64,000 bases of DNA from Escherichia coli (GTDB lineage Bacteria; Pseudomonadota; Gammaproteobacteria; Enterobacterales; Enterobacteriaceae). Where the stretch lies: assembly GCF_024502345.1 (NCBI RefSeq), contig NZ_JALDNN010000001.1. One strand, written 5' to 3'. Positions 24,010-48,104 of this stretch are shown here, in pieces (positions within the stretch are counted from its first letter, which is position 1; every line of letters starts with the position of its first letter). The position numbers were made by a program, and so were the translations under genes. The notes under the pieces were generated by a model. It had not been told where the DNA came from, ran no database searches, and saw nothing but the letters and a program-made list of their open reading frames with translations.

Positions 24010-25101
<1,092 letters not shown>

Positions 25102-27012: not shown

Positions 27013-27068
27013 TGATCTTACCCAGCAATAGTGGACACGCGGCTAAGTGAGTAAACTCTCAGTCAGAG

Positions 27069-28240: not shown

Positions 28241-28324
28241 GCCTGTGTCCATATTACGTGGGTAGGATCATAATGCTTTGGTTGCTGGCGTATCTGACAG
28301 CTTCTTCGGCGTGAAGGTCGTTGT

Positions 28325-29381: not shown

Positions 29382-29480
29382 TGTCCCCATTTGTAAATGG
29401 CTATGCTTAGTCCACATAGGTTAATGGTGTGATTATTAATTCTTTAACTAAATCAAGATAGTTAATGCATCATGGGAGAG

Positions 29481-29900: not shown

Positions 29901-30062
29901 GCCAGTTTCAATATCAATAGCCGCCTTTCGACGGTGTAGTGGGGAGAGTATTGCTTACAAACGTAATGAAATTGTTTGAGTAGCTAGGCTACTGCATAGG
30001 ATTATTTTGTTCTGTTAATATATCCGTTAATATAGATAGATTGATCCAATTGAGTTTAAGGA

Positions 30063-31772
30063 ATGAGTATGTTTCAGATATCAGCTGGAGTGTTCTTTGA
30101 TTTAGATAAAATAGAAAAACACGATGGCGCATTTGTTTTTTATTCAAATGTTGATGTGTCTTTCTCGGTGGAAAACACCTCCCCTCTTTTTAAAGCAAAT
30201 AAAATAAGTCATGATGGTATAAACTGTTATGTGGTAAACTATACTCTCCTGACCGAAAAACCAGAACGAATTGAAGCTGGAGTCGTAGTTAGGGCTGGTG
30301 ATGAGGATTATAGGCAACAATTTATTTTATTATGGGAATTCTATTTTGATTGTGTGGCTAGAGTAGAAAAAGAATCGGTTAAAAAAATATGTGCATTATC
30401 AAATTTTAATAAACATCACTCAAAAATTGCGCTTGAAGTTGCCCCATATTTAGTGGAGATTAACCGAAGAGTTTCATTTGATGATGTCTCTGGGTTTTCT
30501 GCTTTTATTAAAGATGTAGTGAATCTAAATAGATCTGCCTTTAAATCTTTAATGGCAGCGTTAAAAATAATTAGTGATTCAAAAGAATCATTGTCAACCA
30601 ACTTTGACCTGACTTATTCCATGTTAGTCTATGCCTTGGAGTCTTTGTCTCAAAGAAATGATAACTATAAGTCTGATTGGGATGACTACGATCAAAAAAC
30701 CAGAGGTGAATTAGAGTCTGTATTTGAGCATATGCCTGGTGAGGATGTTTGTAAAATTAAATCAATACTTATTGAAGGCAAACAATTCAGATTACAAAAA
30801 AGGTTCAAAGATTTTATACTGAAAAATCTTGAAGAAAATTATTTCAATGAAACAGAGAGATATCCAATCCGCTATAGCTTCCTTAGTAGAGCTTTAGATA
30901 ATTTATACAAAATCAGGTCTTCTTTTGTCCATGAGCTTAAGCCACTTGATGCAATGATCTCGAAAGCCTACAATCCTGTTGGTGATTGTCTGGTTCTTTT
31001 TGGCGAACCTCACTTCAGTTACTCTGGATTGCTTCGACTTCTTCGCCATGTGATAATAAATTTTTGCCGTAAAAACTACAGTCAAAAAAGAGAGTATGTT
31101 AATTGGGTGATGGAAACATCGGGTGTAATGGTTGCAGAGATATCTGCACAATATTGGCTCTGGAATGCAGACGGATTTACAGCTAAAAGTATAGCGAAGT
31201 GGTTTAGTGAATACCTAAATATGTTAAATTTAGGCGAAGTCACTGATTTGCAGTCTATCATGGACAAAATTGAGATAATCTATGACCAATCCAAAAAAGA
31301 ATATAAAAATGGGTTGTTGTATTTTTATTTCTTATATAACTTAATGCATAATGGAAATAAGGGTGAATGGCTTGAGTTTGCGAACAAGCGAAGTTCTATA
31401 CTTGTTTGTGATATATATTGGTATTCATGCTCTCCATATTTATATAAATCATTTACTAATGTTTCAAATGGTATTGCTGATATAAAAACATTGAGAAACT
31501 TTTTGTCTTGTTTTAACGAATATGATAAAAATAAATTTAAGCCAAATCGTTTAAATCTCCCTGCAATGACCGAAGTAATTATGTTGGCTTGCGCAGCAAA
31601 TTCATTCTTCAGAATTGGAATGTATCAAGACTATGTTTTAATGGGCAATAGAGCGATGAGAGAAATTGCTTCAGTAAAAGATGTATTTTATTATATAAAA
31701 GAACGATTAAGTAATTCACAACTTATTGAATTGGACGAGTGCTTGAGATTGTATAGAAAAAAAGGGGGCTAA
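30063..31772 (+). CDS. Hypothetical protein, 569 aa, AT-rich, no family recognised
   Basis: Single long ORF with strong AT bias; GAGT-containing RBS-like sequence before the ATG; bracketed by integrase 3' remnants and inverted IS903 copies. Confidence 0.75.
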   Translation: MSMFQISAGVFFDLDKIEKHDGAFVFYSNVDVSFSVENTSPLFKANKISHDGINCYVVNYTLLTEKPERIEAGVVVRAGDEDYRQQFILLWEFYFDCVARVEKESVKKICALSNFNKHHSKIALEVAPYLVEINRRVSFDDVSGFSAFIKDVVNLNRSAFKSLMAALKIISDSKESLSTNFDLTYSMLVYALESLSQRNDNYKSDWDDYDQKTRGELESVFEHMPGEDVCKIKSILIEGKQFRLQKRFKDFILKNLEENYFNETERYPIRYSFLSRALDNLYKIRSSFVHELKPLDAMISKAYNPVGDCLVLFGEPHFSYSGLLRLLRHVIINFCRKNYSQKREYVNWVMETSGVMVAEISAQYWLWNADGFTAKSIAKWFSEYLNMLNLGEVTDLQSIMDKIEIIYDQSKKEYKNGLLYFYFLYNLMHNGNKGEWLEFANKRSSILVCDIYWYSCSPYLYKSFTNVSNGIADIKTLRNFLSCFNEYDKNKFKPNRLNLPAMTEVIMLACAANSFFRIGMYQDYVLMGNRAMREIASVKDVFYYIKERLSNSQLIELDECLRLYRKKGG

Positions 31773-31932
31773 CCCCTTTTATTTTTAACGTATTCTCCCC
31801 ACCAATCCATCAATTCAATTCGCTGCACGAGATAAGTAGAACGATTGTATGCTTTTCTAACTTCATTTTTATCACTGTGGGCTAAGGCAGACTCGATAAC
31901 ATCAGGATTTAATCCAGCTTCATTCATGGCTG
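31769..31932 (-). pseudogene. Tyrosine integrase, 3' remnant (~50 codons), truncated by IS903
   Basis: Reverse strand translates ...AMNEAGLNPDVIESALAHSDKNEVRKAYNRSTYLVQRIELMDWWGEYVKNKRG*; abuts IS903 end at 31933. Confidence 0.55.
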
Positions 31933-32673
31933 GGCTTTGTTGAATAAATCGAACTTTTGCTGAGTTGAAGGATCAGATCACGTATCTTCCCGACAACGCA
32001 GACCGTTCCGTGGCAAAGCAAAAGTTCAAAATCACCAACTGGCCCACCTACAATAAAGCCCTCATCAACCGTGGCTCCATAACTTTCTGGCTGGATGATG
32101 AAGCTATTCAGGCCTGGTATGAGTCAGCAACACCTTCTTCACGAGGCAGACCTCAGCGCTATTCTGACCTTGCCATCACGACTGTGCTGGTCATTAAACG
32201 CGTATTCAGGCTGACCCTGCGCGCTGCGCAGGGCTTTATTGATTCCATTTTTTCTCTGATGAACGTTCCGCTACGCTGCCCGGATTACAGCTGTGTCAGC
32301 AGGCGGGCAAAGTCGGTTAATGTCAGTTTCAAAACGCCCACCCGGGGTGAAATCGCACACCTGGTAATTGATTCCACCGGGCTGAAGGTCTTCGGTGAAG
32401 GCGAGTGGAAAGTCAAAAAGCATGGCCAGGAACGCCGCCGTATCTGGCGTAAGCTGCATCTCGCCGTTGACAGTAAAACACATGAAATCATCTGCGCTGA
32501 CCTGTCGCTGAACAACGTTACGGACTCAGAGGCCTTCCCCGGGTTAATCCGGCAAACCCACCGGAAAATCAGGTCAGCCGCCGCCGATGGCGCTTACGAT
32601 ACCCGGCTATGTCACGATGAACTGCGGCGTAAGAAAATCAGCGCGCTTATCCCTCCCCGAAAAGGTGCGGGTT
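31933..32673 (+). mobile_element. IS903-family element, truncated second copy (~741 bp), inverted relative to copy 1
   Basis: Starts with GGCTTTGTTGAATAAATCGAACTTTTGCTGAG; identical to copy 1 up to ...AAAGGTGCGGGTT, then diverges into the yfjP-like fragment. Confidence 0.9.
31965..32673 (+). pseudogene. IS903-family transposase, C-terminally truncated
   Basis: First ~236 codons identical to the copy-1 transposase; track ORF continues in unrelated out-of-frame sequence. Confidence 0.8.
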
Positions 32674-33094
32674 GCATCACACCGTTCCAGAACTGCTCGT
32701 CCACCGACAGCGCACGGTCATCAGCTTTGATGACCCACAGCACCAGGTCAAGCTCTGGCAGCATACGCCGGTACAGGGCGCGGTATTCATGGTCCCGTTG
32801 TCCGTTCTCTCCCACGCCCGGTAAATCAACAATCACCAGACTGTGACGACCACTGCGCAGCCGGAAGCGCAGTATGTCGCGGGTGCAGGCGTTCACATCA
32901 CTGACGGCGGAGACTTCCCCCCGAAAGAGTTCGTTACAGAGCGACGACTTACCGGCACCACTCTTGCCCATGATGCCAATCACCGGCTCGTAGTGGGTCA
33001 GATTCTGAATACGTTCAAGAATAAGCTGGCGAAGCGTATCGGGAAGCGACGCCAGCGGTTTTTCCAGGGCCTGAAGGCCATCAGTTTTATTCAT
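32674..33094 (-). pseudogene. yfjP: YfjP/YkfA/YeeP-family GTPase, N-terminal fragment
   Basis: MNKTDGLQALEKPLASLPDTLRQLILERIQNLTHYEPVIGIMGKSGAGKSSLCNELF... (P-loop GKSGAGKS); cut short at the IS903 junction. Confidence 0.75.
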
Positions 33095-33726
33095 ACAGGG
33101 TTCTCAGCGTGAAAAACAAAAATCCCCGCGCTCCGGTCAGGGAGGCGGGGGATTCACGGAGATAATATCTATCTGAATTTATTTAGAATATAAGCAGGCT
33201 CATGTAACTGTAGCAGTGTCAACTTTACATCACAGCTCATGTTGGCTGGTGGTATTTTGCCAATAGTAGACATTTACGCCTAGGTTTAGATATCGAAATT
33301 AGTACACCAATATAGATACAGCAAAGAGGGAACTGATTTGTCTGCGCGAGACTAGAACCGTTGCCCCCTGTGGTTCGATGGATTGCAGGAAAATCATTTC
33401 CGGTGCTGAAGAGAGCCTCCGATACAACCTGAGAATATTTTAAGAACATCAAAATGAATGACGTAATTTACTCAAAGGCGATTGCCTAATATGTCATGAT
33501 ATTAGTAGCATTTAATTGCGTGAAAGTTTGTATATTCTTTTGAATTTATCTCAAAGCTAAAACCTCGTCAAAAATACACAAAAGGGTTTTGAGAAACAAG
33601 AGCCTGATGCTGAATCTGCTACAGAGCTGGGTTCTGTTCTGTTAAACTTGCGGTTAAAAATTTCCAAGAAAACCTAGGATATGACATGAGTTCACTGCAC
33701 ACCAGTAGTAGCAGCAGGGCGGTCAC

Positions 33727-36540
33727 ATGCCAATGGAGAGCTGTACGCAAATGAACGCCGTAGAAATTGAACAAGCCATCACGGATCTTGCAGAGCAACC
33801 CTTTGATCCTATAGAGTTTCCTTATGCTTTTCTTGAAGCCTTTGGTAACAAGGAAACGACTGTCAAACGCTTGCGCGCCGGTGCATCAAACAAATCCGAC
33901 TTGGGCGGTGTTCTCCAGAGCAATAATATTCACATTCTGACCTGCGAAGCAGGGACTGTGACTCAGATGTTGGCCGCGCTCAAGGCTAGCCCTGCGACAA
34001 CTAAAGCCAAGGCGAAGTTCATCCTGGCTACAGATGGCAAAGATTTCGAAGCTGAAGACCTCGTTAGCGGTCAGACTGTCGCTTGCGCCTTTAAAGACTT
34101 CCCAGATCACTTCGGCTTTTTCTTGCCATTAGCAGGCATTAGCACAGTTCGTCAGATTTGTGAGAACTCCTTTGACATTCGGGCCACTAGCCGGCTGAAT
34201 CGTCTGTATGTCGAGTTGTTGAAAGATAACCCTACCTGGGGGACGGCGGAGCGACGTCATGACATGAACAAATTCATGACTCGGCTGATCTTTTGTTTTT
34301 TCGCTGAGGATACTGACATTTTCGTGGGTAAGGGACGCTTTACTGAAACCGTTGCGCAGATGAGTACAAGAGATTCGTCGAATACGCATGAAGTTATCGC
34401 TACCTTGTTTCGTGCCATGAACACCAGTAACAAAGATAGAGCCGCCGCTGGCATCCCGCGCTGGGCCAATGAGTTTCCTTATGTCAACGGACGCTTGTTC
34501 TCTGGGAGTAATGATGTACCACTGTTCAGTAAGATTGCACGGTCTTATTTGCTCCATGTGGGTAGCCTTGACTGGACCAAGATTAATCCGGATATCTTTG
34601 GCTCGATGATTCAGGCAATTGCCGAAGACGAAGAACGCGGAGAGCTGGGGATGCATTACACCAGCGTACCCAACATCTTAAAAGTTTTGAATCCACTATT
34701 TCTGGACGACCTGCGCGCAAAGCTGGATGAGGCGGGTGACAATCCGCGTATGTTGCTTAACCTGCGTAAGCGCATTTCCCACATCCGTGTGTTCGACCCA
34801 GCGTGCGGTTCTGGTAACTTTTTGGTTATCGCGTACAAGGAAATGCGTGCCATTGAGGCCGAAATCAACAAGCGGCGTAATGAGCCAGATCGCGCCTCGG
34901 ATATCCCACTTACCAACTTTCGCGGGATTGAACTAAGAGATTTCCCGGCAGAGATCGCCCGCCTTGCGCTTGTTATCGCTGAGTACCAATGTGATGTACT
35001 GTACCGTGGGCTGCGGTTGGCCTTGGCTGAGCTTCTTCCGTTACGCAACGAAAATTGGATTACCTGTGGCAATGCACTACGGCTCGACTGGTTAAGAATT
35101 TGCCCGCCGACAGGAACAGGTGTGAAATTACATGGCGATGACTTGTTTGGATCTCCGCTTGATCAGGCAGAGATCGACTTTGAGAATGAAGGCGGAGAGA
35201 CATACATTTGCGGTAACCCACCATACCTTGGTTCAAAGTGGCAGACGGATGAACATAAAGCTGATCTTGGCACAATCTTTTCTGGTCGCGTGAAAAATTG
35301 GAAATCGCTCGATTATGTTGCTGGCTGGTTCCTGAAAGCCGCTGACTATGGTAGCCAGACAAGTTCCCAGGCTGCTTTTGTTGCCACTAATTCAATCAGC
35401 CAAGGGCAGCAAGTGTCGATTCTGTGGCCGGAAATATTCAAGGCAGGACAAGAGATTAGTTTCGCTTACACGAGCTTTAAGTGGTCGAACCTCGCTACTC
35501 ACAACGCCGGGGTCACAGTTGTTATCATCGGAATTTCTAACTGTGTAGGAAAGTCGCGACGCCTCTTTTCGGCTGGAGGAGACAATGGTGCGACGACGTG
35601 TCGTGAGGTGGAGCGCATCAACGCCTATTTGATCGCTGGCCCTAACATCATTGTGGAGGGGGACAGTTGTCCAGCCGACAGTCTTGCAACGATGCAGTTC
35701 GGTAACCACCCGTACTATGGTGCATCACTGATCTTTTCGAGATCTGAAGCACAGCAGATGATGTCTGTCGATCCGCGTACGGCGCGTTTTATTCGCCCAC
35801 TATATGGCTCCCAAGAGTTCATTTCCGCTGTGCCACGAGCCTGTCTATGGATTAACGACGATGAGGCTGACGAAGCGGGGACGATTCCTCTGATAGCTGA
35901 GCGTATGAGCGCCGTAGCAAGTGCTAGACGTGCAAAAAAACAAGACAAGGCAGCCCAGAAACTGGCTAAGACTCCATATCGCTTTCGCGACCAGCAGACA
36001 TCTACGAATCATATTCTTGTGGTTCCTCGAGTCAGTTCAGAGAACCGTCCTTGCTTGCCGGTTGGATTACTTGACTCTGACTCTATCGTTCAAGATCAAG
36101 CATTCGCCCTTTACGACGCTCCTCTCTGGAACCTCGCCATCATAGCGAGTCGCCTGCATCTAGTTTGGATCGCCACGGTTTGTGGAAAGTTAGAGACACG
36201 CTACCGCTATTCAAACACCCTCGGCTGGAATACTTTCCCGCTCCCAACACTCACTGAGAAAAATAAGGCAGACCTCACGCGCTGTGCAGAGGATATTCTT
36301 CTGACTAGGGAGCATCACTTCCCTGCAACCATTGCAGACCTTTATGACCCCGAGAAGATGCCAGACGACCTGCGTATTGTGCACGAGCGTAATGACGAAG
36401 TGCTTGAGCGTATTTACATTGGGCGCCGCTTTAAGAATGACACAGAGCGGCTTGAGAAGCTGTTTGACCTTTATACTAAGATGGCCGCTTCAACTGCATC
36501 GGGCAAAAGCAATAAACGTAAAGTGGGAACCAATGCATGA
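33727..36540 (+). CDS. MmeI/PglX-like gamma-class N6-adenine DNA methyltransferase, 937 aa; no recognisable N-terminal PD-ExK motif
   Basis: Motif X-like HYTS, motif I VFDPACGSGNFLV, motif IV ICGNPPYLG; other blocks (RLIFCFFAEDTDIF, FPYVNGRLF, AFVATNSISQGQQVSILWP, LETRYRYSNTLGWNTFP) resemble the MmeI/PglX family from memory. Start could be Met-9 (33751). Confidence 0.85.
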   Translation: MPMESCTQMNAVEIEQAITDLAEQPFDPIEFPYAFLEAFGNKETTVKRLRAGASNKSDLGGVLQSNNIHILTCEAGTVTQMLAALKASPATTKAKAKFILATDGKDFEAEDLVSGQTVACAFKDFPDHFGFFLPLAGISTVRQICENSFDIRATSRLNRLYVELLKDNPTWGTAERRHDMNKFMTRLIFCFFAEDTDIFVGKGRFTETVAQMSTRDSSNTHEVIATLFRAMNTSNKDRAAAGIPRWANEFPYVNGRLFSGSNDVPLFSKIARSYLLHVGSLDWTKINPDIFGSMIQAIAEDEERGELGMHYTSVPNILKVLNPLFLDDLRAKLDEAGDNPRMLLNLRKRISHIRVFDPACGSGNFLVIAYKEMRAIEAEINKRRNEPDRASDIPLTNFRGIELRDFPAEIARLALVIAEYQCDVLYRGLRLALAELLPLRNENWITCGNALRLDWLRICPPTGTGVKLHGDDLFGSPLDQAEIDFENEGGETYICGNPPYLGSKWQTDEHKADLGTIFSGRVKNWKSLDYVAGWFLKAADYGSQTSSQAAFVATNSISQGQQVSILWPEIFKAGQEISFAYTSFKWSNLATHNAGVTVVIIGISNCVGKSRRLFSAGGDNGATTCREVERINAYLIAGPNIIVEGDSCPADSLATMQFGNHPYYGASLIFSRSEAQQMMSVDPRTARFIRPLYGSQEFISAVPRACLWINDDEADEAGTIPLIAERMSAVASARRAKKQDKAAQKLAKTPYRFRDQQTSTNHILVVPRVSSENRPCLPVGLLDSDSIVQDQAFALYDAPLWNLAIIASRLHLVWIATVCGKLETRYRYSNTLGWNTFPLPTLTEKNKADLTRCAEDILLTREHHFPATIADLYDPEKMPDDLRIVHERNDEVLERIYIGRRFKNDTERLEKLFDLYTKMAASTASGKSNKRKVGTNA

Positions 36541-38582
36541 GCAACAAGATTAGATCTGTACCGTCAGTTTCTGTTACCTACTCACGCAACGGAGCATCGA
36601 CCAAGGCTAATTCTCTTGGGATGCGTCCTATGCAAGAAAGGGCTTATGAGAAGCGCGGAGAACAATATCTTCTCATAAAGTCGCCGCCCGCCTCTGGCAA
36701 GAGTCGTGCGCTGATGTTCGTCGCACTCGATAAACTCGCAAACCAGGGGATCAAACAGGCAATCATTGTCGTGCCGGAAAAATCTATCGGCGCGAGCTTC
36801 AACGATGAACCGCTATCGCAGTTTGGATTCTGGGCTGATTGGCATGTTGAACCTAAGTGGAATCTGTGCAACGCCCCCGGTAACGACAACGGCGGCAAGG
36901 TAAAATCTTTCGGCTCTTTTCTTGAAAGTAGCGACAAGGTGCTTGTTTGTACACACGCAACCTTTCGCTTCGCGGTCGATGCCTACGGTGTAGAGGCGTT
37001 TGACGATCGCCTGATCGCCGTCGATGAATTTCACCATGTGTCCGCTAACCCGGATAACAAGCTTGGTCAGCATCTGGGACAGTTCATTGAGCGTGACAAG
37101 ACGCACATCGTGGCCATGACCGGCTCCTACTTCCGGGGAGATGCGGAAGCCGTTTTGGCTCCTCAGGATGAGTCTAGGTTCGATACCGTCACCTACACCT
37201 ACTACGAACAACTCAACGGTTACGAATACCTCAAACAGCTTGATATCGGATACTTCTTTTATAGTGGATCATACATTGATGACATCCTCAATGTCCTCGA
37301 TCCTGACAAGAAAACGATTATCCATATTCCCAACGTCAATTCGCGCGAGAGTACGAAGGATAAAATTAAGGAGGTGGAGCACATTCTGAGCGAGCTTGGC
37401 GATTGGCAAGGTGCGGATCCTACGACTGGTTTTCAGCTAGTCAAGCGCCCCGATGGCCATGTGTTGCGTATTGCTGACCTGGTGGACCCAGCCAGTCAAG
37501 GCAAGATTCAGGAAAGCCTCCGAGCTCCAGAAATGAAGACAGACCGTGACTATGTAGACATCATTATTGCACTTGGTATGGCGAAGGAAGGTTTCGACTG
37601 GATCTGGTGCGAACATGCGCTGACTGTTGGCTACCGTGCCAGCCTGACTGAGATCGTGCAGATTATCGGTCGCGCTACTCGCGACGCGCCGGGTAAAACC
37701 CGCGCGAGATTTACTAACTTGATCGCCGAGCCCGACGCTGTAGAGGGCGCAGTAACTGAGGCAGTCAACGATACCTTGAAAGCTATCGCGGCGAGCCTGT
37801 TGATGGAACAGGTACTGGCTCCGCGCTTCGAGTTCAAGCCCAAGAATCCTGAAATCGGTCCGACTCCAGGCTTTGATTATGGTGATGGAGGATATGACCC
37901 GGATAGCTGCAATTTTGGTGTTAATGAGCAGACAGGGACGTATCAAATCGAGATTAAGGGACTTGCCGAGCCTAGGAGCAAAGAGGCGGCACGTATCTGC
38001 CAGGAAGATTTAAACGAAGTGATCGCGGCCTTTGTGCAGGATAAGCCCGCCATCGAACGAGGCCTGTTCGATGAAGAGCTGATCCCTGAAGAGTTAACAC
38101 AGGTTCGTATGGGTAAGATCATCAAAGAAAAGTATCCTGAACTTGATGCTGAAGATCAGGAGGCTGTACGTCAGCATGCTATCGCCGCCCTTAACCTCAC
38201 GCAGCAGGCCAAGCGTCTTGCTACCGGTGAAAACGATGGGACGCTCAATACTGCTCTTATTGACGGAGTGCGTCGCTTTGCAATGGATGTGCGCGATTTA
38301 GACATAGACCTTATCGACCGCATCAATCCCTTTGGTGAAGCCTACGCTATCCTTGCTAAGACGATGAGTGAAGACAGTTTGAAGCAGGTCGCGGCGGCCA
38401 TCTCGGCCAAGCGTACTTCGATCACGCCTGAAGATGCCAAGGTGATCGCCAAGCGTGCCGCTGAATTCAAACGTGAACGTGGGCGCCTCCCATCGTTAAC
38501 TTCGCTGGATGCTTGGGAAAAACACCTTGCTGAAGGTGCAGCCGCGTTTATGCGTTTTAGGGCGGAGGGACGTTATGAGTAA
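36537..38582 (+). CDS. SF2 DExH-box helicase (ResIII-like), 681 aa, with ~270 aa C-terminal region of unknown function
   Basis: Motif I PPASGKS, motif II AVDEFHHV, motif III MTGS, motif VI QIIGRATRD; ATG overlaps the methyltransferase stop (ATGA). Confidence 0.85.
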   Translation: MSNKIRSVPSVSVTYSRNGASTKANSLGMRPMQERAYEKRGEQYLLIKSPPASGKSRALMFVALDKLANQGIKQAIIVVPEKSIGASFNDEPLSQFGFWADWHVEPKWNLCNAPGNDNGGKVKSFGSFLESSDKVLVCTHATFRFAVDAYGVEAFDDRLIAVDEFHHVSANPDNKLGQHLGQFIERDKTHIVAMTGSYFRGDAEAVLAPQDESRFDTVTYTYYEQLNGYEYLKQLDIGYFFYSGSYIDDILNVLDPDKKTIIHIPNVNSRESTKDKIKEVEHILSELGDWQGADPTTGFQLVKRPDGHVLRIADLVDPASQGKIQESLRAPEMKTDRDYVDIIIALGMAKEGFDWIWCEHALTVGYRASLTEIVQIIGRATRDAPGKTRARFTNLIAEPDAVEGAVTEAVNDTLKAIAASLLMEQVLAPRFEFKPKNPEIGPTPGFDYGDGGYDPDSCNFGVNEQTGTYQIEIKGLAEPRSKEAARICQEDLNEVIAAFVQDKPAIERGLFDEELIPEELTQVRMGKIIKEKYPELDAEDQEAVRQHAIAALNLTQQAKRLATGENDGTLNTALIDGVRRFAMDVRDLDIDLIDRINPFGEAYAILAKTMSEDSLKQVAAAISAKRTSITPEDAKVIAKRAAEFKRERGRLPSLTSLDAWEKHLAEGAAAFMRFRAEGRYE

Positions 38583-39753
38583 TTCTGATTTAGACGATTT
38601 GGCGGCAGAACTTGCTGAATTTGCACCACCGGAGAAGAAAAAAGGACGTCCAGCCAGCGAGGAACGCATCATCGCAGGTTTTGAGGAAATCCAGCGCTTC
38701 GCTGACCAACATGGACGTGCGCCGCAACACGGCGAAGAGCGTGAGATCTTTGAGCGCCTCTATGCAGTGCGGCTCGACCGGCTACGCAGTCTCCCAGACT
38801 GCCGTGCCTTGCTAGAGCCGCTGGATCATCAAGGCTTATTGGCTGGAGGGGGTGATGTAGCGGAGTCAGCGGACGAAATTATCGATATCGATAATTTGGC
38901 TGCCGAACTGACGGATGTTTCCAGCGAGGATGATATCACAGTCTTGCGTCATGTTCGTGCTAGCGCCGAAAAGCGTGCTGTACAAGGGATCGCGGATCGC
39001 AAGCCGTGCGAGGATTTTGATACATTCAAACCGCTATTTGAACAGGTGCGCAGTGATCTAAGTTCAGGGTTAAGAGTGACCCGACCTTTTGGACAGTATG
39101 CAACGATTGAAGTGGGCCATTGGTTCATCCTGGATGGTCAAACGGCTTATGTGGCTGAGGAAGGTGAAGAGTTCGATTCTCCACAGGGGAAGAAAGATGC
39201 TCGGCTGCGTGTCATTTATTCGAATGGTACAGAAAGTAACCTGCTTCGGCTGTCATTAGTTCGTGCTTTGTATAAAGACGAAACAGCACGTCGAATTACC
39301 GATCCAGACATGGGGCCTTTATTCAGCGATGCTCTAGAAGAGAGCGATCTAGAAAGTGGCACCATTTATGTATTGCGTTCGCTATCAGATAACCCTTATG
39401 TGGCCGAACATCGTGATGTTATTCACAAGATTGGTGTGACTGGCGGCAAGGTCGAGACTCGTATTGCTAATGCTGAACACGATTCCACCTATCTGTTGGC
39501 GAAGGTAGAGGTGGTCGCTTCATACAAACTCGCAGGTATCAACCGCACCCGGATGGAAAACCTGTTTCACAGGTTGTTTGCACCCGCAAGGCTTAACATT
39601 ACCATTAACGACCGTTTCGGCCATCCAGTACAGCCCGAGGAATGGTTTCTCGTTCCGTTATTCGTTATCGATGAGGCTGTTGCACGTATTAAGGATGGTA
39701 GCATCATTGGGTATGTTTATGACCCCATGTCTGCGAAACTGGTGAAGGCATAG
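38575..39753 (+). CDS. GIY-YIG-like / T5orf172-like domain protein, ~392 aa (tentative domain call)
   Basis: GGAGG RBS then ATG at 38575 overlapping helicase stop (ATGAGTAA); C-terminal region GTIYVLRS...YVAEHRDVIHKIGVTGGKVETRIAN resembles GIY...YIG-R; acidic N-terminus. Confidence 0.65.
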   Translation: MSNSDLDDLAAELAEFAPPEKKKGRPASEERIIAGFEEIQRFADQHGRAPQHGEEREIFERLYAVRLDRLRSLPDCRALLEPLDHQGLLAGGGDVAESADEIIDIDNLAAELTDVSSEDDITVLRHVRASAEKRAVQGIADRKPCEDFDTFKPLFEQVRSDLSSGLRVTRPFGQYATIEVGHWFILDGQTAYVAEEGEEFDSPQGKKDARLRVIYSNGTESNLLRLSLVRALYKDETARRITDPDMGPLFSDALEESDLESGTIYVLRSLSDNPYVAEHRDVIHKIGVTGGKVETRIANAEHDSTYLLAKVEVVASYKLAGINRTRMENLFHRLFAPARLNITINDRFGHPVQPEEWFLVPLFVIDEAVARIKDGSIIGYVYDPMSAKLVKA

Positions 39754-39868
39754 TGAAGTGACACACTGAATTTGGCCACCTGTTCTGAGGTGAGTATATC
39801 ACCTCAGAACAGCACAGGAATAAAAGATACTGATTTGAATGTACCTATACTTTGCGATGTGAGGATCA

Positions 39869-40660
39869 ATGAATAGTAACCTGACCAAGATATGTTACCG
39901 TGGTGAGACTGGTGAAAGTGATCTAAGAACGTTGATACTTGGTGAGATTCTATATATCTCACTACGAGATGTTTTAATCACGCTGAATAAAGAAAATAGA
40001 GAAATCAACGCTGATTACACAGTAAAATCGATGGCTGGAATAATCAGGGCGCAATTACAGGCTCTTGACCCTGATGAGTATATTACTACAGATGCTGAAA
40101 ATGGTGTTTTTGAAGGTCAGAAAGAGATCTTCGTCACCCAGCCAGGTTTGTATCGAGTCATGTCAAGTGACCGAAGCGCTGCCGGTAAGCGCTTTCAAAA
40201 ATGGTTATTTCATGAAGTCATACCATCATTGACTAAGCATGGTGTATACCCGCCTCCGCCAGAAGCGAAAGGTTCAGCCCTTGCACAAATGGCTGAGATA
40301 CTTGCTCAAAATTCGCGAGCACTTGCTGACGCAATCCATAAACACGAAAAACTGGCCGAAGATGTCTCACAGGTTAAAGGTAAAGTTGCCAACGTTGAAA
40401 GCCGTCTGGAACTGTTAGAATCAGGTCCTTCCACTGTAACTGAAGATATGCATACTCTTGATAGCCGTCTCGCTTATTTGGACATGAGCATGGAAGAAAA
40501 GCATACCACCGAGACATTAGCCTGGTGCGAGAATATTTCTGTTCAAAATAACAGGAAGGTGATTCGCAAGGACTGTAGGGAGAATTCGCTCTTTACAACG
40601 CAGACTATCGACGAAGCAATCGCTATCATGACTGAAAGTGGAAAAATCACACCAAATTGA
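39869..40660 (+). CDS. Bro-N domain protein (phage antirepressor-like), 263 aa
   Basis: ...GLYRVMSSDRSAAGKRFQKWLFHEVIPSLTKHG matches the Bro-N/Ant hallmark (F..W...EV.PSI); coiled-coil-like C-terminal half. Confidence 0.7.
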   Translation: MNSNLTKICYRGETGESDLRTLILGEILYISLRDVLITLNKENREINADYTVKSMAGIIRAQLQALDPDEYITTDAENGVFEGQKEIFVTQPGLYRVMSSDRSAAGKRFQKWLFHEVIPSLTKHGVYPPPPEAKGSALAQMAEILAQNSRALADAIHKHEKLAEDVSQVKGKVANVESRLELLESGPSTVTEDMHTLDSRLAYLDMSMEEKHTTETLAWCENISVQNNRKVIRKDCRENSLFTTQTIDEAIAIMTESGKITPN

Positions 40661-40748
40661 AGATCCTGGGGTTCAGATTATCTGCTGGCTATCTTATTGA
40701 GCTCTGACGTAAAATAGGCCTTCCCACAAAGAGAAGGCCATTGCCGAC

Positions 40749-41375
40749 TTACAGATCGATTTGGCTACAGCCGAAGTTACGGTCTCCTTCACCAAACACT
40801 TTGCTTTCGACTTTGGTGAGGTAATCCAGTCGGGTTAACAGCGCTTGGTAGTTATGCTGGAAGTCAGCATTATTGGTATCCAGCACGTACTTACAGTTGT
40901 CAGGAAAATGGACCAGACCAGGGTGATCATCCAGTTTCAGTCCCAGGGCGCTGTACCACGCTCCCGTAATCATCCCTCTCAGGTTATCGTGCTGATCGTA
41001 ATCCCCGAGGTGGTAGTAAGCGTCTTTGTTGAACAACAGGCAAATGTGGTAGTGGCATTTACCTGACTCAGAATACTCTTTCGCCCATATAATAAATAAA
41101 GGGCAACGGTAGATGCGTTTACCTTCACGCTCCTTACGGGTACGGTCAGCCTCCAGTTTAGCTCTGAGGGAATCACGCATTCGGGATATCACCCCTGGTT
41201 CAAGATTAGGGAAACAGCAGATATTGTCTCCGTTATCGACTATCTTCGGATAATGCAGATCGACACGTACCGCCGTTAACCTGGGGTAACGGTTAGTCAA
41301 ATAACATAATAATTTTTTAATCTTGATCTGATATTCGAGGATATGTACTCCATGAGTACCTTGATATGTTTTCAT
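40749..41375 (-). CDS. YagK/YfjJ-family protein (inovirus Gp2-like)
   Basis: 208 aa ORF with Cys/His-rich stretch (CHYHICLLFNKDAYYH); family assignment from memory of CP4-57/CP4-6 yfjJ/yagK. Confidence 0.6.
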   Translation of the reverse strand: MKTYQGTHGVHILEYQIKIKKLLCYLTNRYPRLTAVRVDLHYPKIVDNGDNICCFPNLEPGVISRMRDSLRAKLEADRTRKEREGKRIYRCPLFIIWAKEYSESGKCHYHICLLFNKDAYYHLGDYDQHDNLRGMITGAWYSALGLKLDDHPGLVHFPDNCKYVLDTNNADFQHNYQALLTRLDYLTKVESKVFGEGDRNFGCSQIDL

Positions 41376-41646
41376 AATATATATCTGTATTTGGTCCTAC
41401 GGTCTATAGCAGACCGTACAGGGATGCCATACAGGCAGGGCTATTCCTGGTCACTGTTGTCGGTATATACTGGTATCAGATCTTAGTACGGATATACTGA
41501 TCTGATTACTACTCTTACTGGTGAATACAGGTAGTAAGAGTACACAATGCCATTATATAATACCTATCCAACATCTAAATTTGAGACGAAGGTAGCCCCA
41601 GCCTGTGATGGCTGTTAAAAAGTTACTCTGCAATTAGCTTCTGGAA

Positions 41647-42216
41647 TTAACCGATGATTCCGTTATTCCAGTGCCGCTTCACAGTCGATAAACTGATACT
41701 CAATTTCTTTGCAATCTCAGCCTGAGTAAATCCACCTTTCTTAAGTATTGTGATATCACGTCGGTATTTGCTTCCCTCCTTTCGTCCTAATTTCTTCTTA
41801 ACATGTCGATATCGGCTTTTAGTTGATTTCAGATTGTGAATGTCAATCGTATCCTGACGAGCAATCAAAAAAGACAAGCAACTTTCAGCAGAAGGCTCTA
41901 TCCTTGAAGCTGGATGGTAGCTGTAGATAAAAATTTCTTTTTGAAGGCAAAAAAATAAAATATTCTGTAAGTCCTCCACAGTTCTGCCAAGACAGCTTAG
42001 ATCTGGAATGACAAGCGTGTCCTGCCGGTTCATTTCATGATGAATCAATTGTCTGAGTAAACGTTGCTCTGAAACAACCTCTTTAATATCTACCTGCTCG
42101 ATCACAACATGTTCAGGTAGAATATTAAATTTTTGGCATATCTCAGCAAGTGAGTGATGATCTGTAATGCTTTCTTGCTGTTCGCTACTGCATATGGTGT
42201 AAAAAAATGAACGCAT
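41647..42216 (-). CDS. Serine recombinase-like protein (resolvase/invertase fold), possibly catalytically altered
   Basis: From internal Met: MRSFFYTICSSEQQ (cf. YARVSTxxQ), LVIPDLSCLGRTVEDL (cf. DRLGR), C-terminal HTH GFTQAEIAKKLSISLSTVKRH. Track ORF extends to 42345. Confidence 0.6.
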   Translation of the reverse strand: MRSFFYTICSSEQQESITDHHSLAEICQKFNILPEHVVIEQVDIKEVVSEQRLLRQLIHHEMNRQDTLVIPDLSCLGRTVEDLQNILFFCLQKEIFIYSYHPASRIEPSAESCLSFLIARQDTIDIHNLKSTKSRYRHVKKKLGRKEGSKYRRDITILKKGGFTQAEIAKKLSISLSTVKRHWNNGIIG

Positions 42217-42371
42217 CTGATGCACTCCGGTGTCATAAATTATTCTTTGATACCTGAACAATGTCATTTTGTATAAAAAATAACCAAAAATAGAGCGTGA
42301 TTGCCAGCGATACTTTGAGTGGTAAAGTAGTATTTTACCTCTCATAATTGTTTGTCCTTCTTTGTTACCTC

Positions 42372-43085
42372 TTAGGTTCTGCTCTCCTGTGAGTATGGGT
42401 TTATAATGATGTCATCCGGTGCATTAACACGGTTGGAAACATTTGTTTTACGGATCACTGGCAGCATAACCACCATCTCATTGACATGGTAAATATCAAT
42501 CCAACAAACAACCGGATAAGGCATAACAATCCCCTTTCTTCTAAGAACTTCATTTATCCCGAATATAATTAATTGGGATGTTGACAAGAGTAGAGTCTGC
42601 CCGACATCAAAGTAATAATCCTCAAAGGTTGTTCTATGAATAAGAATAATGTTTGAATATCCCAAGACACTTTGATGCTTTACATTAAAATGTCGTTGAT
42701 TGTAAATGTAAATGGCTTTTTCCATATCGTAATTTTCCCTCAGCGAGGATAGCCTTTCACGTATAACTGTTTTTTCATCTTTCCCCATGAATTCATCATT
42801 AGCGTTCAGTTTAAAGTAATCTGTAATTGGGATTTTTAATGGACTCATGATGTTCGTTTTCCAGATTAACGAACAGTATTCTTCCAGAGTCACTTCTTTT
42901 TCACCTCGATTTCGAATAATTCTTTCATTTATAGTGAATCTTAGTAGATCGTTTTTTAGCTCCTTTATTAGCCATTGATAGCGAAGACATTGCTCGAATA
43001 TATGTACCGTCAACGCCACAGAGTCTGATATGACTGAGGAAAGAGATTTATTATTCATCCTGGCATAATGCTCAAGAGTTTCCAT
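42372..43085 (-). CDS. Hypothetical protein, 237 aa, AT-rich
   Basis: Long ORF with no recognised motifs; between resolvase-like gene and alpA. Confidence 0.55.
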   Translation of the reverse strand: METLEHYARMNNKSLSSVISDSVALTVHIFEQCLRYQWLIKELKNDLLRFTINERIIRNRGEKEVTLEEYCSLIWKTNIMSPLKIPITDYFKLNANDEFMGKDEKTVIRERLSSLRENYDMEKAIYIYNQRHFNVKHQSVLGYSNIILIHRTTFEDYYFDVGQTLLLSTSQLIIFGINEVLRRKGIVMPYPVVCWIDIYHVNEMVVMLPVIRKTNVSNRVNAPDDIIINPYSQESRT

Positions 43086-43245
43086 CTCAGATTCATTTTT
43101 GTGCGTAAAAGTGTATTTTTTATTGGAAATGTTTTTTACTCCTTATAATTAACATTGCTATTAATTAATCCTGTTTGTAAAGGAGAAGTTTATTAATAAG
43201 TAAAAGTCCGCCTGCATCAAGACACGATGAAAATGTCTTCCTTTC

Positions 43246-43458
43246 TTACTCTATTGCCCGGGTTCGTTGTAAAATCCATTCGTCTATTTCAGCCTCTATC
43301 CAGCCGACAGATTGCAGCCCCAGACGACGTTGTTTCGGGAACGTTGGGTCATAGCGTGGCGATTTCGGATTGATCCAGTCATAGATTGTTGAACGTGACA
43401 AGCCCGTTTTGTCAATTACTGTAGAAAGACGAAGTATTTTAACATTAGATTTGTTCAT
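43246..43458 (-). CDS. alpA: AlpA-family prophage regulatory protein (excisionase-like HTH)
   Basis: 70 aa: MNKSNVKILRLSTVIDKTGLSRSTIYDWINPKSPRYDPTFPKQRRLGLQSVGWIEAEIDEWI, characteristic AlpA sequence. Confidence 0.85.
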   Translation of the reverse strand: MNKSNVKILRLSTVIDKTGLSRSTIYDWINPKSPRYDPTFPKQRRLGLQSVGWIEAEIDEWILQRTRAIE

Positions 43459-43649
43459 AGCTGATTACCTCAAATCGAAGTGCTCTGGATGATGTGAGAT
43501 TAGCTTTAAGGCAGCCAATCTAAAATGTATGTGCCAAAAAAACTTTTTTTTACGAACGGGAAATAAATATCCTATTGAAATTTAATGATTTTATTTTTTT
43601 TCTGTCGGGTCCATCAGAACGGTGTGAATTCAGTTACAGCCTTCCGGTC

Positions 43650-44570
43650 CGGTAATGGGCCAGTTATATGTTGAGTGGCTGCGCTTCGATGACTTCTGTT
43701 TCAGTGGGCTGGTCTATCTCCGACGTGCTGTGGCAGGTAGCGGTTCAGCAGTAGCCATTATTCGTTCTGCTCCGTCAGTACCGCACCCAGCAGCCGCAAG
43801 ATGCTCTCTTCATTGGGAAGATACCTACCACTGTCAACGCCAAGATTGTTGGCCGTTTCGTCCGCATCCCCTATTGGTCATTAATGTTGTCCGCTTTCCG
43901 CCGTTTCATCTCTTTGTTCAGGCGCTCCAGCGTGTTTGTGGAGTGGGTTTTTCACTTGGTGTGCTTTCGGGAGGCCGAAGGACGCCAGCACGTCTGCCTC
44001 TGCTTCGTCCATCACCCCGGTGACCGCCGGGTTGCTTTTCTCCCATTGACCGGCAACCTTGCACAGGTGGCATGGGCGCTTTTCTCGTCGGTCTGCACGA
44101 ACACCTGTTGCAGCGCCGCACGGACCACCGACTGGTTTGCACGGCTGACGCGGCTCAGCACGTTGCGCATGAAGTGGACCCGGCAGCGCTGCCAGCTGGC
44201 GGAGAACATCTGCCTATCGCCGCCTTCAGGCTCAGCAGGAAGGTCAGCCAGGATGCCGTTTATCCATGCTTCCTGGATAACCGCGTTGAGCGCCTTCTCA
44301 GACAATCTGTGGGCCTCCAGGAAGGGCGGGAAGTACGTCCCTTTAAGCAGCTTCGGAATACGCAGGTCCACAGCGTGCCGAGCTGGCGGGGACTGACGGT
44401 CACGATAGCCGTTGTGGTAGGTTTCGCGCTCATCGCTGCGCTAGTGGGCTCCGCGTTGATGTGCTGAGTGACATCTGCTTCCATAATGCAGTTGAGCATA
44501 AATTCGGTGAGTTCACGCAGAAAATCCTCGCCGCCGAGTAGCATCAGGGTGTTGCTGAATGTCATGCTGT
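43650..44570 (-). pseudogene. IS256-family (mutator-type) transposase, frameshifted remnant
   Basis: Reverse-strand ORF pieces ...LRELTEFMLNCIMEADVTQHINAEP..., ...RLSEKALNAVIQEAWINGI..., ...VHFMRNVLSRVSRANQS... resemble IS256-family blocks in different frames; GC-rich. Confidence 0.55.
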
Positions 44571-44784
44571 TGTCATTCCGAATTTACACCACGCCCTAAG
44601 ACTCTACCTTATTTTCTTTGCAAAGCAGGCTGCTTGTGCAAGTTGTACATGTAGTTAACAGGCAGTAAGTATGGCAAACCATTATTTCATGTCTTCACAT
44701 CTGGTTCTTCATTCAGTTAAGTAGTAAAAATGAAAGGGATGTCAGAGCAAGAACAGATGACGTTGTGTAACTGACCAATGAAGG

Positions 44785-45558
44785 ATGATATGGAATATGC
44801 TTGATATTTTTTGCTCGGAATTTGAAGAAAAAAGAAACAAATTAAAGACCTACCTTGAAAGCTCGGGATTTCTTTATAGGCATTCTATCATCAAAAAAAT
44901 GTCTCTTTTGGATGGTATGGATGAAAGCCAGAATTTTGAGTTGTTGCAGGCGAAACAATATAATCGTGATGATATACAATGCTGGGAGTATATTAGCTCT
45001 AAGTGGACCGTCGTTCCTATTATGATGGGTTCGCAAAGCCTTAAACACTTTTTTACATGGAATTTTAAGGCCGCTGGGATATTTCAGCGATATGGAAAGG
45101 ATATGTGGGATATCAACAAGATAATTGCAGTTAAATCTTTATTGTTTGCTAGTTCAGTCTTAGGTAGTTGCCTTGGGGTTGCAGGCTATGGCCCGTTGCT
45201 GCCTTCGGAGCTTGCATTAGACAAAAAGAAGCTAACTAAGAAAAAACAGTCAGCAAGAATGGGAGGGATATCTAAGGCTGAATTATATCTCCCGATAAAA
45301 GAAGAGACGATAAGATTGCTCCACCAAAATGTTCCTGTGGATGGTAGATGGAAAAATAAAACGGTTGCAGCAAAGGCAATAGAGGCAGATTTAGTCATCT
45401 TTGTACAAAATTTGAAATCTCAAAACCAAAATCTGGATCTTAATGAAGAAGATATTATTACAGTCGTCAAACGTTGGGAACGCAATGATGAAAGAGTAAA
45501 GGCTGCATTTGAGGGAACGGTGAAGCAAAAAATCTCTGGCAAGAAGGGCTCGGGTTAG
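44785..45558 (+). CDS. Hypothetical protein, 257 aa, AT-rich, integrase-proximal
   Basis: Long ORF with no recognised motifs; AAGGA RBS favours the second ATG (44797); convergent with integrase. Confidence 0.65.
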   Translation: MIWNMLDIFCSEFEEKRNKLKTYLESSGFLYRHSIIKKMSLLDGMDESQNFELLQAKQYNRDDIQCWEYISSKWTVVPIMMGSQSLKHFFTWNFKAAGIFQRYGKDMWDINKIIAVKSLLFASSVLGSCLGVAGYGPLLPSELALDKKKLTKKKQSARMGGISKAELYLPIKEETIRLLHQNVPVDGRWKNKTVAAKAIEADLVIFVQNLKSQNQNLDLNEEDIITVVKRWERNDERVKAAFEGTVKQKISGKKGSG

Positions 45559-45587
45559 AACTTCTCATTATTTTTTCCAAAAATAAG

Positions 45588-45612
45588 AACCGCGCCTTTG
45601 AAGGCGCGGATT
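45588..45612 (-). terminator. Probable intrinsic terminator downstream of the integrase gene
   Basis: Hairpin CCGCGCCTT-TGAA-AAGGCGCGG followed (reverse strand) by a T-rich run. Confidence 0.5.
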
Positions 45613-45620
45613 AAGTAGAA

Positions 45621-46862
45621 TCAAACAACAAGTTTTAATGCACCGGCACTAGATTCTACCATGCTTCCTTTATCTGCTCTTTTAACAAAATCAGCCCACC
45701 ATTGCATCATCGGCCTACGTTGCTCAAGATAATCACTGCGGTTATAAGCGCGACGTACCTCATTTTTGTCTACATGAGCAAGTGCGGCTTCAATGACATC
45801 AGGAGGAAATCCTTGCTCATTGAGGGCTGTACTGGCGATAGAACGCAAACCATGTGAAACCAGCACTCCCCCTAAACCGGCACGCTTGAGTGCAGCATTC
45901 ACGGTTTGACTGTTCATCGGCTGAGTGGGCTTAATGCGGCTTGGAAAAATAAAATCTCGGCCACCACTGAGCGGCTTCATCATTTCCAGAATAGCCAGAG
46001 CCCCATCAGATAATGGAACGGTATGGTCCCGGTTCATTTTCATTCGGGCTGCTGGAATTTTCCATTCGTTAGCATCAAAATCGATCTCATTCCACCGAGC
46101 TTCTGCGGCTTCTGCGGGGCGGGTGATGGTGAGAAGTTGCCACATGAACAGACACCGCGTAGACAGGCTGATACTGGCCGTACGCATAGTTTGCATCAAC
46201 TGAGGCAACTGATCCGGACGAATACTGGGCATGTTCTTTTTCTGAGGTTTCTCGAAGGCTTTGCCAATATTAACACTGGGAACTGCATCAATCAGGCCCG
46301 TGTTTTGGGCATAAATCATGACTTCATTGATCCGTTGGCAAAGACGGCGGACAGTTTCCAGTGCTCCTCGGGCCTGAACGGGTTGAACGGCTTGAACCAG
46401 TGTATGGGCTTTAATATCTGTAACGCTTACGTTGCCAATTGCGGGAAATATATCTCTTTCAAGCGAACGCCAGATATCATCAGCATAGTCCTCGGTTACA
46501 CTGGCTTTCTTCACATTCCACCAACGCTCGGCAACTAACAAGAAAGTGTTGGTTTTGGCCTCCTGAGAATTTCTTATCTGTTCTTTTTGGTATTCCTGAG
46601 GATCGATTCCTTTTGCCAGTAATACTTTGGATTCAGCTCTGAGCTTACGAGCATCGGAAAGCGAGACAGCAGGATAGGAACCGAAGCTCTGTTTAGTTCG
46701 CTGTTTTGTCAGAGGTCGGTAATAACGGAATTGCCAGAGCTTACTGCCACTGGATTTGATTAGCAGCGTCAGTCCGTCACCATCATACAACTGATAATCG
46801 GCATCTTTAGATTTGGCTGCTTTGATTTCCGTATCCGTTAACGGCTTGGTTTTTCTTGCCAC
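45621..46862 (-). CDS. intA: P4/CP4-57-type tyrosine integrase (IntA-like)
   Basis: 413 aa: MARKTKPLTDTEIKAAKSKDADYQLYDGDGLTLLIKSSGSKLWQFRYY...; C-terminal catalytic region HGLRSIASTA...AHVDKNEVRRAYNRSDY; adjacent to ssrA 3' end. Confidence 0.93.
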   Translation of the reverse strand: MARKTKPLTDTEIKAAKSKDADYQLYDGDGLTLLIKSSGSKLWQFRYYRPLTKQRTKQSFGSYPAVSLSDARKLRAESKVLLAKGIDPQEYQKEQIRNSQEAKTNTFLLVAERWWNVKKASVTEDYADDIWRSLERDIFPAIGNVSVTDIKAHTLVQAVQPVQARGALETVRRLCQRINEVMIYAQNTGLIDAVPSVNIGKAFEKPQKKNMPSIRPDQLPQLMQTMRTASISLSTRCLFMWQLLTITRPAEAAEARWNEIDFDANEWKIPAARMKMNRDHTVPLSDGALAILEMMKPLSGGRDFIFPSRIKPTQPMNSQTVNAALKRAGLGGVLVSHGLRSIASTALNEQGFPPDVIEAALAHVDKNEVRRAYNRSDYLEQRRPMMQWWADFVKRADKGSMVESSAGALKLVV

Positions 46863-47044
46863 GGTGGAGTCTCCATGCTTTTAGGCCCAACAAAGACCAT
46901 AGATCTTTTCGTTGGGCCTATCAATGGGCCTAAAACAATTAGCTTAGGTAGGATCAAATCAGATAGCGCTGGACATAAAAAAGCCCGTAAGTCGTTGTGA
47001 CTACGGGTTTTTTGGTTTTTCTTGGATTGCTTTGGAATAAAATT

Positions 47045-47407
47045 TGGTGGAGCTGGCGGGAGTTGAACCCGCGTCCGAAATTCCTACATCCTCGGTACTA
47101 CATGCTTAGTCAGTCTTTACATTCGCTTGCCAGCTGCGGACGGACACGCCACTAACAAACTAGCCTGATTAAGTTTTAACGCTTCAACCCCAGGCAGGGC
47201 TTCCACGCGATCTCTTTTGGGTTTGACCTCTCTTGATCCCCGTCCTAAGAGCGGAGGCTAGGGAGAGAGGGCTCTAAGCAGGTTATTAAGCTGCTAAAGC
47301 GTAGTTTTCGTCGTTTGCGACTATTTTTTGCGGCTTTTTACGAGGCCAACCGCCCCTCGGCATGCACCTTGGGTTTCGCAAATCCCGTCGAATCCAGAAT
47401 CAGCCCC
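47045..47407 (-). ncRNA. ssrA: tmRNA (SsrA), 363 nt
   Basis: Reverse complement begins GGGGCTGATTCTGGATTCGACGGG and ends GGTTCAACTCCCGCCAGCTCCACCA; terminator-like hairpin follows at ~46975-47015. Confidence 0.97.
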
Positions 47408-47621: not shown

Positions 47622-48104
47622 TTAACGGTGGGCGTTTTTCATGATACGCGCTTTATCCACCTGCCATTCGCGCTCTTTGATATCTGAACGTTTATCGTGC
47701 TGTTTCTTACCTTTGGCGACGCCGATTTTCACTTTGCACCAGGCATTTTTCCAGTACAGGGAGAGCGCCACTACGGTATAGCCTTCTCGATTGACGCGAC
47801 CGTACAATGAGTCCAGTTCGCGCTGGTTGAGAAGTAACTTGCGGGTACGGGTAGGGTCGCACACCACATGCGTGGAGGCCACGGCCATTGGCGTGATGTT
47901 AGCGCCAAACAGAAATGCCTCTCCGTCACGCAGAAGGACGTAGCTGTCGCTGATATTGGCTTTTCCTGCGCGCAGGGATTTAACCTCCCAGCCTTGCAGG
48001 GCAAGTCCCGCTTCGAACTCTTCTTCGATAAAGTATTCGTGACGGGCGCGCTTGTTAAGCGCGATGGTCGCTGAACCAGGTTTATGTGCTTTTTTCTTCG
48101 TCAT
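47622..48104 (-). CDS. smpB: SsrA-binding protein
   Basis: 160 aa [37 protein letters not shown]... Confidence 0.96.

Follow-up and report, generated by a model that had tools for sequence, protein, structure and literature searches.

PICMI satellites of Vibrionaceae carry, in order, int, iolg/icg, alpA, a DUF3987 primase gene and a defence gene (PMC10803314). Their int-adjacent gene, iolg/icg, of unknown function and divided among 13 families, is required for excision, as shown only for PICMI115 (PMC10803314). In the cryptic prophage CP4-57 of Escherichia coli K-12, the slot between intA and alpA at ssrA is held by yfjH, which is convergent to intA and divergent to alpA. This gene is preferentially transcribed by the sigma-S holoenzyme in vitro (PMC3141248), and the literature on K-12 yfjH yielded no functional study beyond screen and array listings. 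We analyzed a 64,000-nucleotide stretch of E. coli DNA (contig NZ_JALDNN010000001.1 of assembly GCF_024502345.1; hereafter the window) and found that a gene on its plus strand, at 44797..45558, encoding 253 amino acids plus stop, occupies the same slot in the same orientations. The gene is very probably a diverged member of the YfjH family and a conserved part of the island backbone. As the best overall explanation, to which we give a probability of roughly 0.4, we propose that its product acts on the island's own AlpA/integrase switch.

The similarity to K-12 YfjH (b2623) extends over 201 aligned amino acids at 29% identity (BLASTP, E=3e-21). The phrog_19089 profile, which itself has no assigned function, matches residues 82-251 of the protein (E=1.3e-19) as well as 94 of 103 of its relatives. 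An exhaustive HMMER search of 1.84 billion cluster representatives recovered 116 relatives at E<=1e-3, most of them 230-320 amino acids long and aligned over query residues ~148-246. Named members come from Escherichia, Salmonella, Klebsiella, Proteus, Serratia and Yersinia, every one annotated as "hypothetical protein"; a genome scan with a narrow alignment, in which two species-representative genomes matched, added Citrobacter and Mixta. A word-indexed protein search with the family profile gave no further members. The initial annotation, made from the letters of the window alone, had described the gene as an orphan with no recognisable motif. Its homologues show that it is no orphan; the lack of a motif was confirmed, with no Pfam or NCBIfam family matching the protein and 0 defence families of PADLOC-DB v2 at E<=10. 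A Pfam scan of the 103 relatives at E<=1 returned isolated single matches (TraY, HTH_Tnp_1, TPR), none of them recurring. The gene thus adds a rare, diverged allele to an already known family: 6 of the 5426 complete E. coli genomes carry it, against 364 for the K-12 yfjH allele. The 90%-identity protein cluster of the flagged gene has 137 members, most of them from Salmonella enterica, including Typhimurium. Truncated forms are numerous in this cluster, for example a 151-amino-acid form on 109 contigs, and pseudogenisation of the gene seems to be frequent in Salmonella.

The flagged protein and K-12 YfjH have the C-terminal motif GG...W...W in common; they differ in the N-terminal ~60 residues, which cannot be aligned, and in length (291-318 amino acids in K-12 vs 253 here). 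The annotation of 318 amino acids in NC_000913.3 is probably 27 codons too long at its 5' end (fetched locus 4021-4101), because the extension coincides with the conserved non-coding alpA control region described below. All homologues align from Met28 of K-12 YfjH, and the PHROG profile has a length of 292; the true K-12 start is probably Met28, giving a protein of 291 amino acids.

In the window, an uninterrupted open reading frame (ORF) spans 44785-45558 (+). The 257 codons given in the initial annotation are counted from the first in-frame ATG, at 44785; the ORF is indeed intact, and the second in-frame ATG, at 44797, is the likely start, because the Prokaryotic Genome Annotation Pipeline (PGAP) and all close homologues begin there and the AAGGA Shine-Dalgarno sequence (44781..44785, +), 11 nt 5' of this second ATG, overlaps the first. 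Comparison with the orthologues of Klebsiella oxytoca, Citrobacter sp. and Salmonella Java (69-75% amino acid identity) gave a ratio of nonsynonymous to synonymous substitution rates (dN/dS) of ~0.22. Together with the AlphaFold2 confidence of 93, this identifies the ORF as a real protein-coding gene under purifying selection, not a chance ORF. A small ORF upstream, at 44731-44775, was rejected, its reading frame not being kept in K. oxytoca. The G+C content of the gene is 0.385, vs 0.473 in intA, 0.557 in the insertion sequence (IS) remnant upstream and 0.50 in the core genome. The gene is therefore AT-rich, as initially noted, but so are its backbone neighbours (yagM-like, 0.36; yagL-like, 0.376), and the supposedly GC-richer surroundings amount to the IS256 remnant and the integrase gene.

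The evidence that the gene belongs to the backbone comes foremost from its pairing with alpA. Its divergent partner in the window is an alpA gene of 70 codons at 43246..43458 (-), recognized by PF05930 and encoding a protein 71% identical to K-12 AlpA. Of 8 informative contexts in the family, 7 have the gene and alpA transcribed divergently; in the loci fetched for members that range from 75% identity to E~1e-3, it lies head-to-head with a Phage_AlpA gene. This arrangement was seen in K-12, E. coli 0H25, K. oxytoca, Salmonella Java, Salmonella Wilhelmsburg and metagenomic loci. Beyond alpA follow yagM/yagL-like genes or a DUF3987 (YfjI) gene, and then a YagK_YfjJ_C gene (inovirus Gp2-like replication protein, Rep). 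The other flank is as a rule occupied by a P4-type integrase gene, usually convergent. In the window this is an intA-type P4-family tyrosine integrase gene at 45621..46862 (-), whose 413-amino-acid product is 92% identical to K-12 IntA and has the Pfam domains Arm-DNA-bind_3, Phage_int_M and Phage_integrase; the two genes are convergent, as initially reported, with 62 bp between their stop codons. A family hidden Markov model (HMM) run over the fetched loci found the family gene wherever alpA abuts int divergently. The backbone order of these AlpA-controlled islands is thus int, yfjH-like, alpA, yfjI or yagM/yagL, yfjJ/yagK, cargo.

Sequence divergence among islands follows the same grouping. 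We compared pairwise identities among eight islands (28 pairs). Between the window and K-12, the integrases are 92% identical, the YfjH-like proteins 29%, AlpA 71% and Rep 44%; between the window and Salmonella Java, the respective values are 32%, 69%, 78% and 76%, and between K-12 and 0H25 they are 95%, 59%, 90% and 44%. Over the 28 pairs, which are not independent data points and for which the correlation is descriptive, YfjH-like identity has a Spearman coefficient of 0.55 with AlpA identity and -0.07 with that of the integrase. Since its identity tracks AlpA while the integrase is exchangeable, the YfjH-like gene is part of an alpA module that gets recombined onto different integrases, and, judged by the same identities, its fastest-diverging member.

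The independence from the integrase bears directly on a role as an excision or recombination cofactor, in which the excisive or integrative complex would comprise the protein alongside IntA and AlpA. The gene sits between int and alpA, as does the PICMI gene iolg, which is excision-essential, no less diverse and likewise without annotation (PMC10803314). At one locus, the family gene follows int immediately and in the same direction, and the basic C-terminal domain could bind attachment-site or arm DNA. The sequence of the protein, however, shows no tracking of Int at all, with the same subfamily found beside integrases only 32% identical. The gene is usually convergent with int and not co-transcribed with it, and at three loci three additional genes separate the two. 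The protein does not resemble excisionases of the Xis/AlpA/TorI type: it has no Phage_AlpA or Xis Pfam match, is 253 amino acids long and all-helical, and the island has a separate AlpA of its own. By analogy with PICMI a cofactor role is conceivable, and it is the chief rival to our reading; we think it unlikely.

The initial annotation had placed the gene in a variable cargo slot beside the integrase, typical of P4-like and CP4-57-like elements, which would make it stand-alone anti-phage defence cargo. Some observations agree with this. The gene is AT-rich and has no assigned function, the island does bear defence genes, the allele is rare (6/5426), and the int-adjacent gene varies among E. 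coli ssrA islands, as the comparison proposed in the initial annotation confirmed. Three of the six E. coli ssrA islands sampled have no family member: the family HMM found none in those of FDAARGOS_943, O104:H4 and SC477, where different unannotated genes adjoin intA, nor in a CP4-6-like island. These differences reflect swapping of whole modules, not exchange of a cargo gene. In the ssrA island of O104:H4 2011C-3493 we also observed a gene (locus 3037-6783) for a 1248-amino-acid hypothetical protein, convergent with the integrase gene and matching no Pfam or PADLOC family.

The slot of the flagged gene is no cargo slot. The homologous yfjH occupies the same slot in CP4-57, and in loci of Escherichia, Salmonella, Klebsiella and Citrobacter the pairing of the gene with alpA is conserved; further family members occur in Serratia, Yersinia and Proteus. 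Neither PADLOC with the flagged protein nor tblastn against phage and plasmid collections gave a match. The element is not P4-like either: its backbone consists of alpA, yagM, yagL and yagK, and neither Pfam scans nor the PGAP annotations of near-identical islands show any of the P4 core genes (psu, delta, sid, alpha primase). The alpA operon continues with the yagM-like (42372-43085, -), yagL-like (41647-42345, -) and yagK (40749-41375, -) genes, the last encoding the YagK_YfjJ_C / inovirus Gp2-like Rep. Cargo lies past yagK, in the region 33727..40660, which encodes on the plus strand an MmeI-like type IIG restriction-modification enzyme of 937 amino acids (33727-36540; PADLOC REase_MTase_IIG, E=4e-284; all five MmeI Pfam domains), a DEAD-box helicase (36537-38582), a T5orf172/GIY-YIG nuclease (38509-39753) and a BRO-N protein (39869-40660). 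PADLOC has no match for the helicase or the nuclease of the window, and the enzyme, helicase and nuclease may therefore form an uncatalogued three-gene variant. The content of this distal region differs between relatives: a DndB-family protein with a methylase, a type I restriction subunit with FtsK-like genes, a DNA methylase with large unknown proteins, an nSTAND-like ATPase, or AbpAB in K-12. The variable, defence-bearing region is thus distal to yagK/yfjJ, with the flagged gene on the conserved side. Because it is paired with alpA, co-varies with AlpA and lies away from the cargo, we regard the gene as backbone. It is conserved backbone with no known role, and a function as defence cargo is very improbable, the least supported of the roles considered.

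The region between alpA and the YfjH-like gene contains conserved blocks. Over ~120 bp next to alpA, all subfamilies have GAGATTAGC, GT(G/A)CCAAAAAAAC followed by a T-run and ACA/ACGA, and ATTGA(A/T)A. The window has these at 43459..43598 (no strand assigned) as GAGATTAGC, GTGCCAAAAAAAC-T8-ACGA and ATTGAAA. In most relatives the start codon of the YfjH-like gene comes directly after this control region. The spacer between alpA and the gene measures 114-136 bp in most other subfamilies and 184 bp in one, vs 446 bp in the subfamily of the window (Klebsiella, Citrobacter, Salmonella). The extra ~300 bp contain no conserved ORF and no Rfam match; whether they serve as a long 5' untranslated region is a question we only raise.

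In the window, the spacer is interrupted by a decayed IS256-family element at 43599..44666 (-), identified from PGAP annotations of near-identical genomes, with break-points taken from IS-free loci. This remnant of ~1.07 kb, whose transposase gene reads away from the flagged gene, splits the latter from alpA and the control region, and is present in the window and in 6 of 6 matching E. coli genomes. Salmonella Java carries an unrelated IS (DDE_Tnp_1; locus 6942-7634) in the same spacer, and the two are independent insertions at one regulatory spacer. As the IS256 remnant lies between the gene and alpA, it may have disturbed native regulation. The gene could even be a stranded passenger in this strain, its native promoter severed and its sequence heading for decay. 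The position of the control region on the far side of the remnant fits such a fate, as do the orientation of the transposase gene, the frequent truncated copies among Salmonella members of the 90% cluster, and a scan of the 200 bp upstream in which no consensus promoter reached the threshold. Yet the ORF is intact in 7 of 7 E. coli copies and in Mixta, and the ~130 bp of native sequence immediately upstream (44667..44796, +) are conserved with the IS-free relatives having the 446-bp spacer (~83-84% identity to K. oxytoca and Citrobacter), so a proximal promoter may exist. By eye, we found a candidate weak promoter, TTCACA-N17-TTAAGT at ~44704-44732, which is kept in K. oxytoca. Stranding is in any case compatible with any function of the gene; for this strain we consider it quite unlikely.

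The protein itself is predicted to have two domains. AlphaFold2 run with the 103 relatives gave a model with a mean predicted local distance difference test (pLDDT) score of 93.3 and a predicted template modelling score of 0.73, comprising 12 helices and no strands; a run with 4 sequences only (pLDDT 51) was unusable, and the 103-sequence alignment was used instead. Across the 103 family members, a variable, acidic N-terminal half (median isoelectric point 5.2) is joined to C-terminal ~100 amino acids that are conserved and basic (median 9.7, 10th-90th percentile 8.9-10.1). Residues near-invariant in the alignments, G156, G157, L174, W185, A191, F202 and W227, are all present in the flagged protein. 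Of the homology and structure searches suggested in the initial annotation, the former led to YfjH and PHROG 19089; the latter found no fold match to the model in PDB or BFVD, and PDB sequence-profile searches returned only noise (E>=0.007; designed helical proteins, haemagglutinin coiled coils). The model thus portrays a two-domain, all-helical protein with a confidently predicted fold without known relative.

We infer an action on the island's own switch from the divergent pairing with alpA across a conserved control region, the split into a conserved basic and a hyper-variable acidic domain, the co-variation with AlpA and the independence from the integrase. The alpA operon would be kept off by binding of the basic C-terminal domain, either to the conserved control region of alpA or to AlpA. 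Specificity, or the sensing of a signal such as a phage protein, would fall to the fast-evolving N-terminal domain, in a logic comparable to that of cI/Cro or of Stl/Str in Staphylococcus aureus pathogenicity islands (SaPI). That the protein regulates the alpA operon by this specific mechanism is a tentative proposition, more doubtful than the general one. There is a small chance that a large class of Enterobacterales islands, CP4-57 among them, which are AlpA-controlled and carry defence genes, has its master switch in the YfjH proteins; the hyper-variable N-terminal domain would then be a sensor triggered by different phages, and the protein would do in Gram-negative bacteria, with a new fold, what Stl does in SaPI.

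Several points weigh against an action on the switch. Pfam finds no helix-turn-helix (HTH) or other DNA-binding motif in any of the 103 members, and a basic C-terminal domain is only a circumstantial sign of DNA binding. The pairing has variants: at one locus the family gene is co-directional directly behind int and not divergent from alpA, and CP4-6-type islands have the unrelated yagN in its place. The co-variation is descriptive, as stated. In addition, the sole functional hint for K-12 YfjH, the blocking of RcaT, is of a different kind from regulation.

That hint comes from a screen in which overexpression of yfjH blocked the retron-Sen2 toxin RcaT (bioRxiv 10.1101/2020.06.22.160242; repeated in PMC11951105). 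It would fit an accessory counter-defence or host-modulating protein that neutralises a host or competitor system, such as an abortive-infection toxin. K-12 yfjH is listed there among prophage-encoded RcaT blockers, and the gene is the fastest-evolving of the backbone (29% identity vs 71% for AlpA), as an arms race would lead one to expect. This is, however, a match in one overexpression screen; the accessible bioRxiv text is silent on individual validation of yfjH, and some of the blockers described in it were genes whose only effect is on induction or mating. A counter-defence role also leaves the strict pairing with alpA and the conserved common control region unexplained, and we consider it improbable.

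Taken alone, the finding is an ordinary one: what it adds is no new defence gene but another allele, rare and diverged, of a y-gene known from K-12. The YfjH-like/alpA divergent pair is nevertheless fixed in islands with restriction, Abp, Rnl and other defence cargo, a rule that we have not found annotated before. If the pair is an on/off switch, YfjH, uncharacterised since the sequencing of the K-12 genome, becomes directly testable, with predictions concerning alpA transcription, excision frequency and binding to the 140-bp region.

On the other side of the gene, the 62-bp gap before the integrase gene contains an 8-bp GC-rich hairpin at 45590..45609 (-). The initial annotation had assigned a common terminator region to both genes. 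A hairpin is present, but its U-tract is on the intA (-) strand only; on the plus strand, AUUAAGUAGAAU follows the hairpin. Because the U-run is present solely in the intA direction, the hairpin is an intrinsic terminator for intA, and for the flagged gene a weak one at best. Over this region (45554-45620, +) we also noted an Rfam match below threshold to RF02059 (STnc50/STnc40, a Salmonella small RNA; 26 bits vs a gathering score of 55, E=0.3), apart from which the Rfam scan returned only transfer-messenger RNA (tmRNA).

The integrase gene lies directly inside ssrA (47045..47407, -; tmRNA/Rfam match), the attachment site of the island, beyond which is the smpB ORF (47622-48104, -). A far-end att repeat of ssrA was not found within the window (<=3 mismatches in 29 nt). 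In E. coli 873.10, a P2-like prophage (locus 22623-41021) lies past intA on the outer side, where the window has ssrA, which suggests tandem use of the ssrA site in that strain. A contig of Mixta tenebrionis BIT-26 (NZ_VHQI01000005.1, locus 137-6514) is 98.35% identical to the window at 40712-47082 over 6.4 kb, a stretch that includes the IS remnant and encodes a protein of 100% identity. The match stops 38 nt into ssrA, and no intact tmRNA gene was found beside it in that locus. This points either to the island having moved between genera recently or to an assembly that is misassigned or contaminated. Elsewhere in the window, a palindromic unit resembling repetitive extragenic palindromes or bacterial interspersed mosaic elements (REP/BIME) occurs in four tandem ~90-nt copies at 19573-19949 and as a related single copy at 4159-4218; such units are common in E. 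coli intergenic regions.

The locus can thus be set beside four known arrangements. CP4-57, which has the same slot, differs from the island of the window in its yfjI/yfjJ-like remainder, the rest of the window's island being CP4-6-like (yagK/L/M), and the window has the IS256 remnant between the flagged gene and alpA. CP4-6, the island type whose yagK/L/M backbone matches that of the window, carries YagN between an alpA-like gene (ykgV) and intF. We considered YagN as a homologue and rejected it, as it has no sequence similarity to the flagged protein; it is 146 amino acids long and its gene is co-directional with the alpA-like gene. The genes of lambda cI and SaPI Stl are, like the flagged gene, divergent from the gene of a small AlpA/Xis-like regulator across a short control region, and these repressors, like the YfjH family, are diverse between related elements, with one conserved and one variable domain. 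They differ in having a recognisable HTH, whereas none was detected in the YfjH family, whose conserved domain is C-terminal; repression of a divergent early operon is their function and, for the flagged gene, a proposed one. PICMI iolg/icg overlaps int and is co-directional with it, and the flagged gene is convergent, with 62 bp between the stop codons. Both genes are highly diverse and lie between int and alpA, and they can be likened by this position and by the order of the backbone. By this analogy, we take iolg/icg to be the closest functional precedent for the flagged gene.

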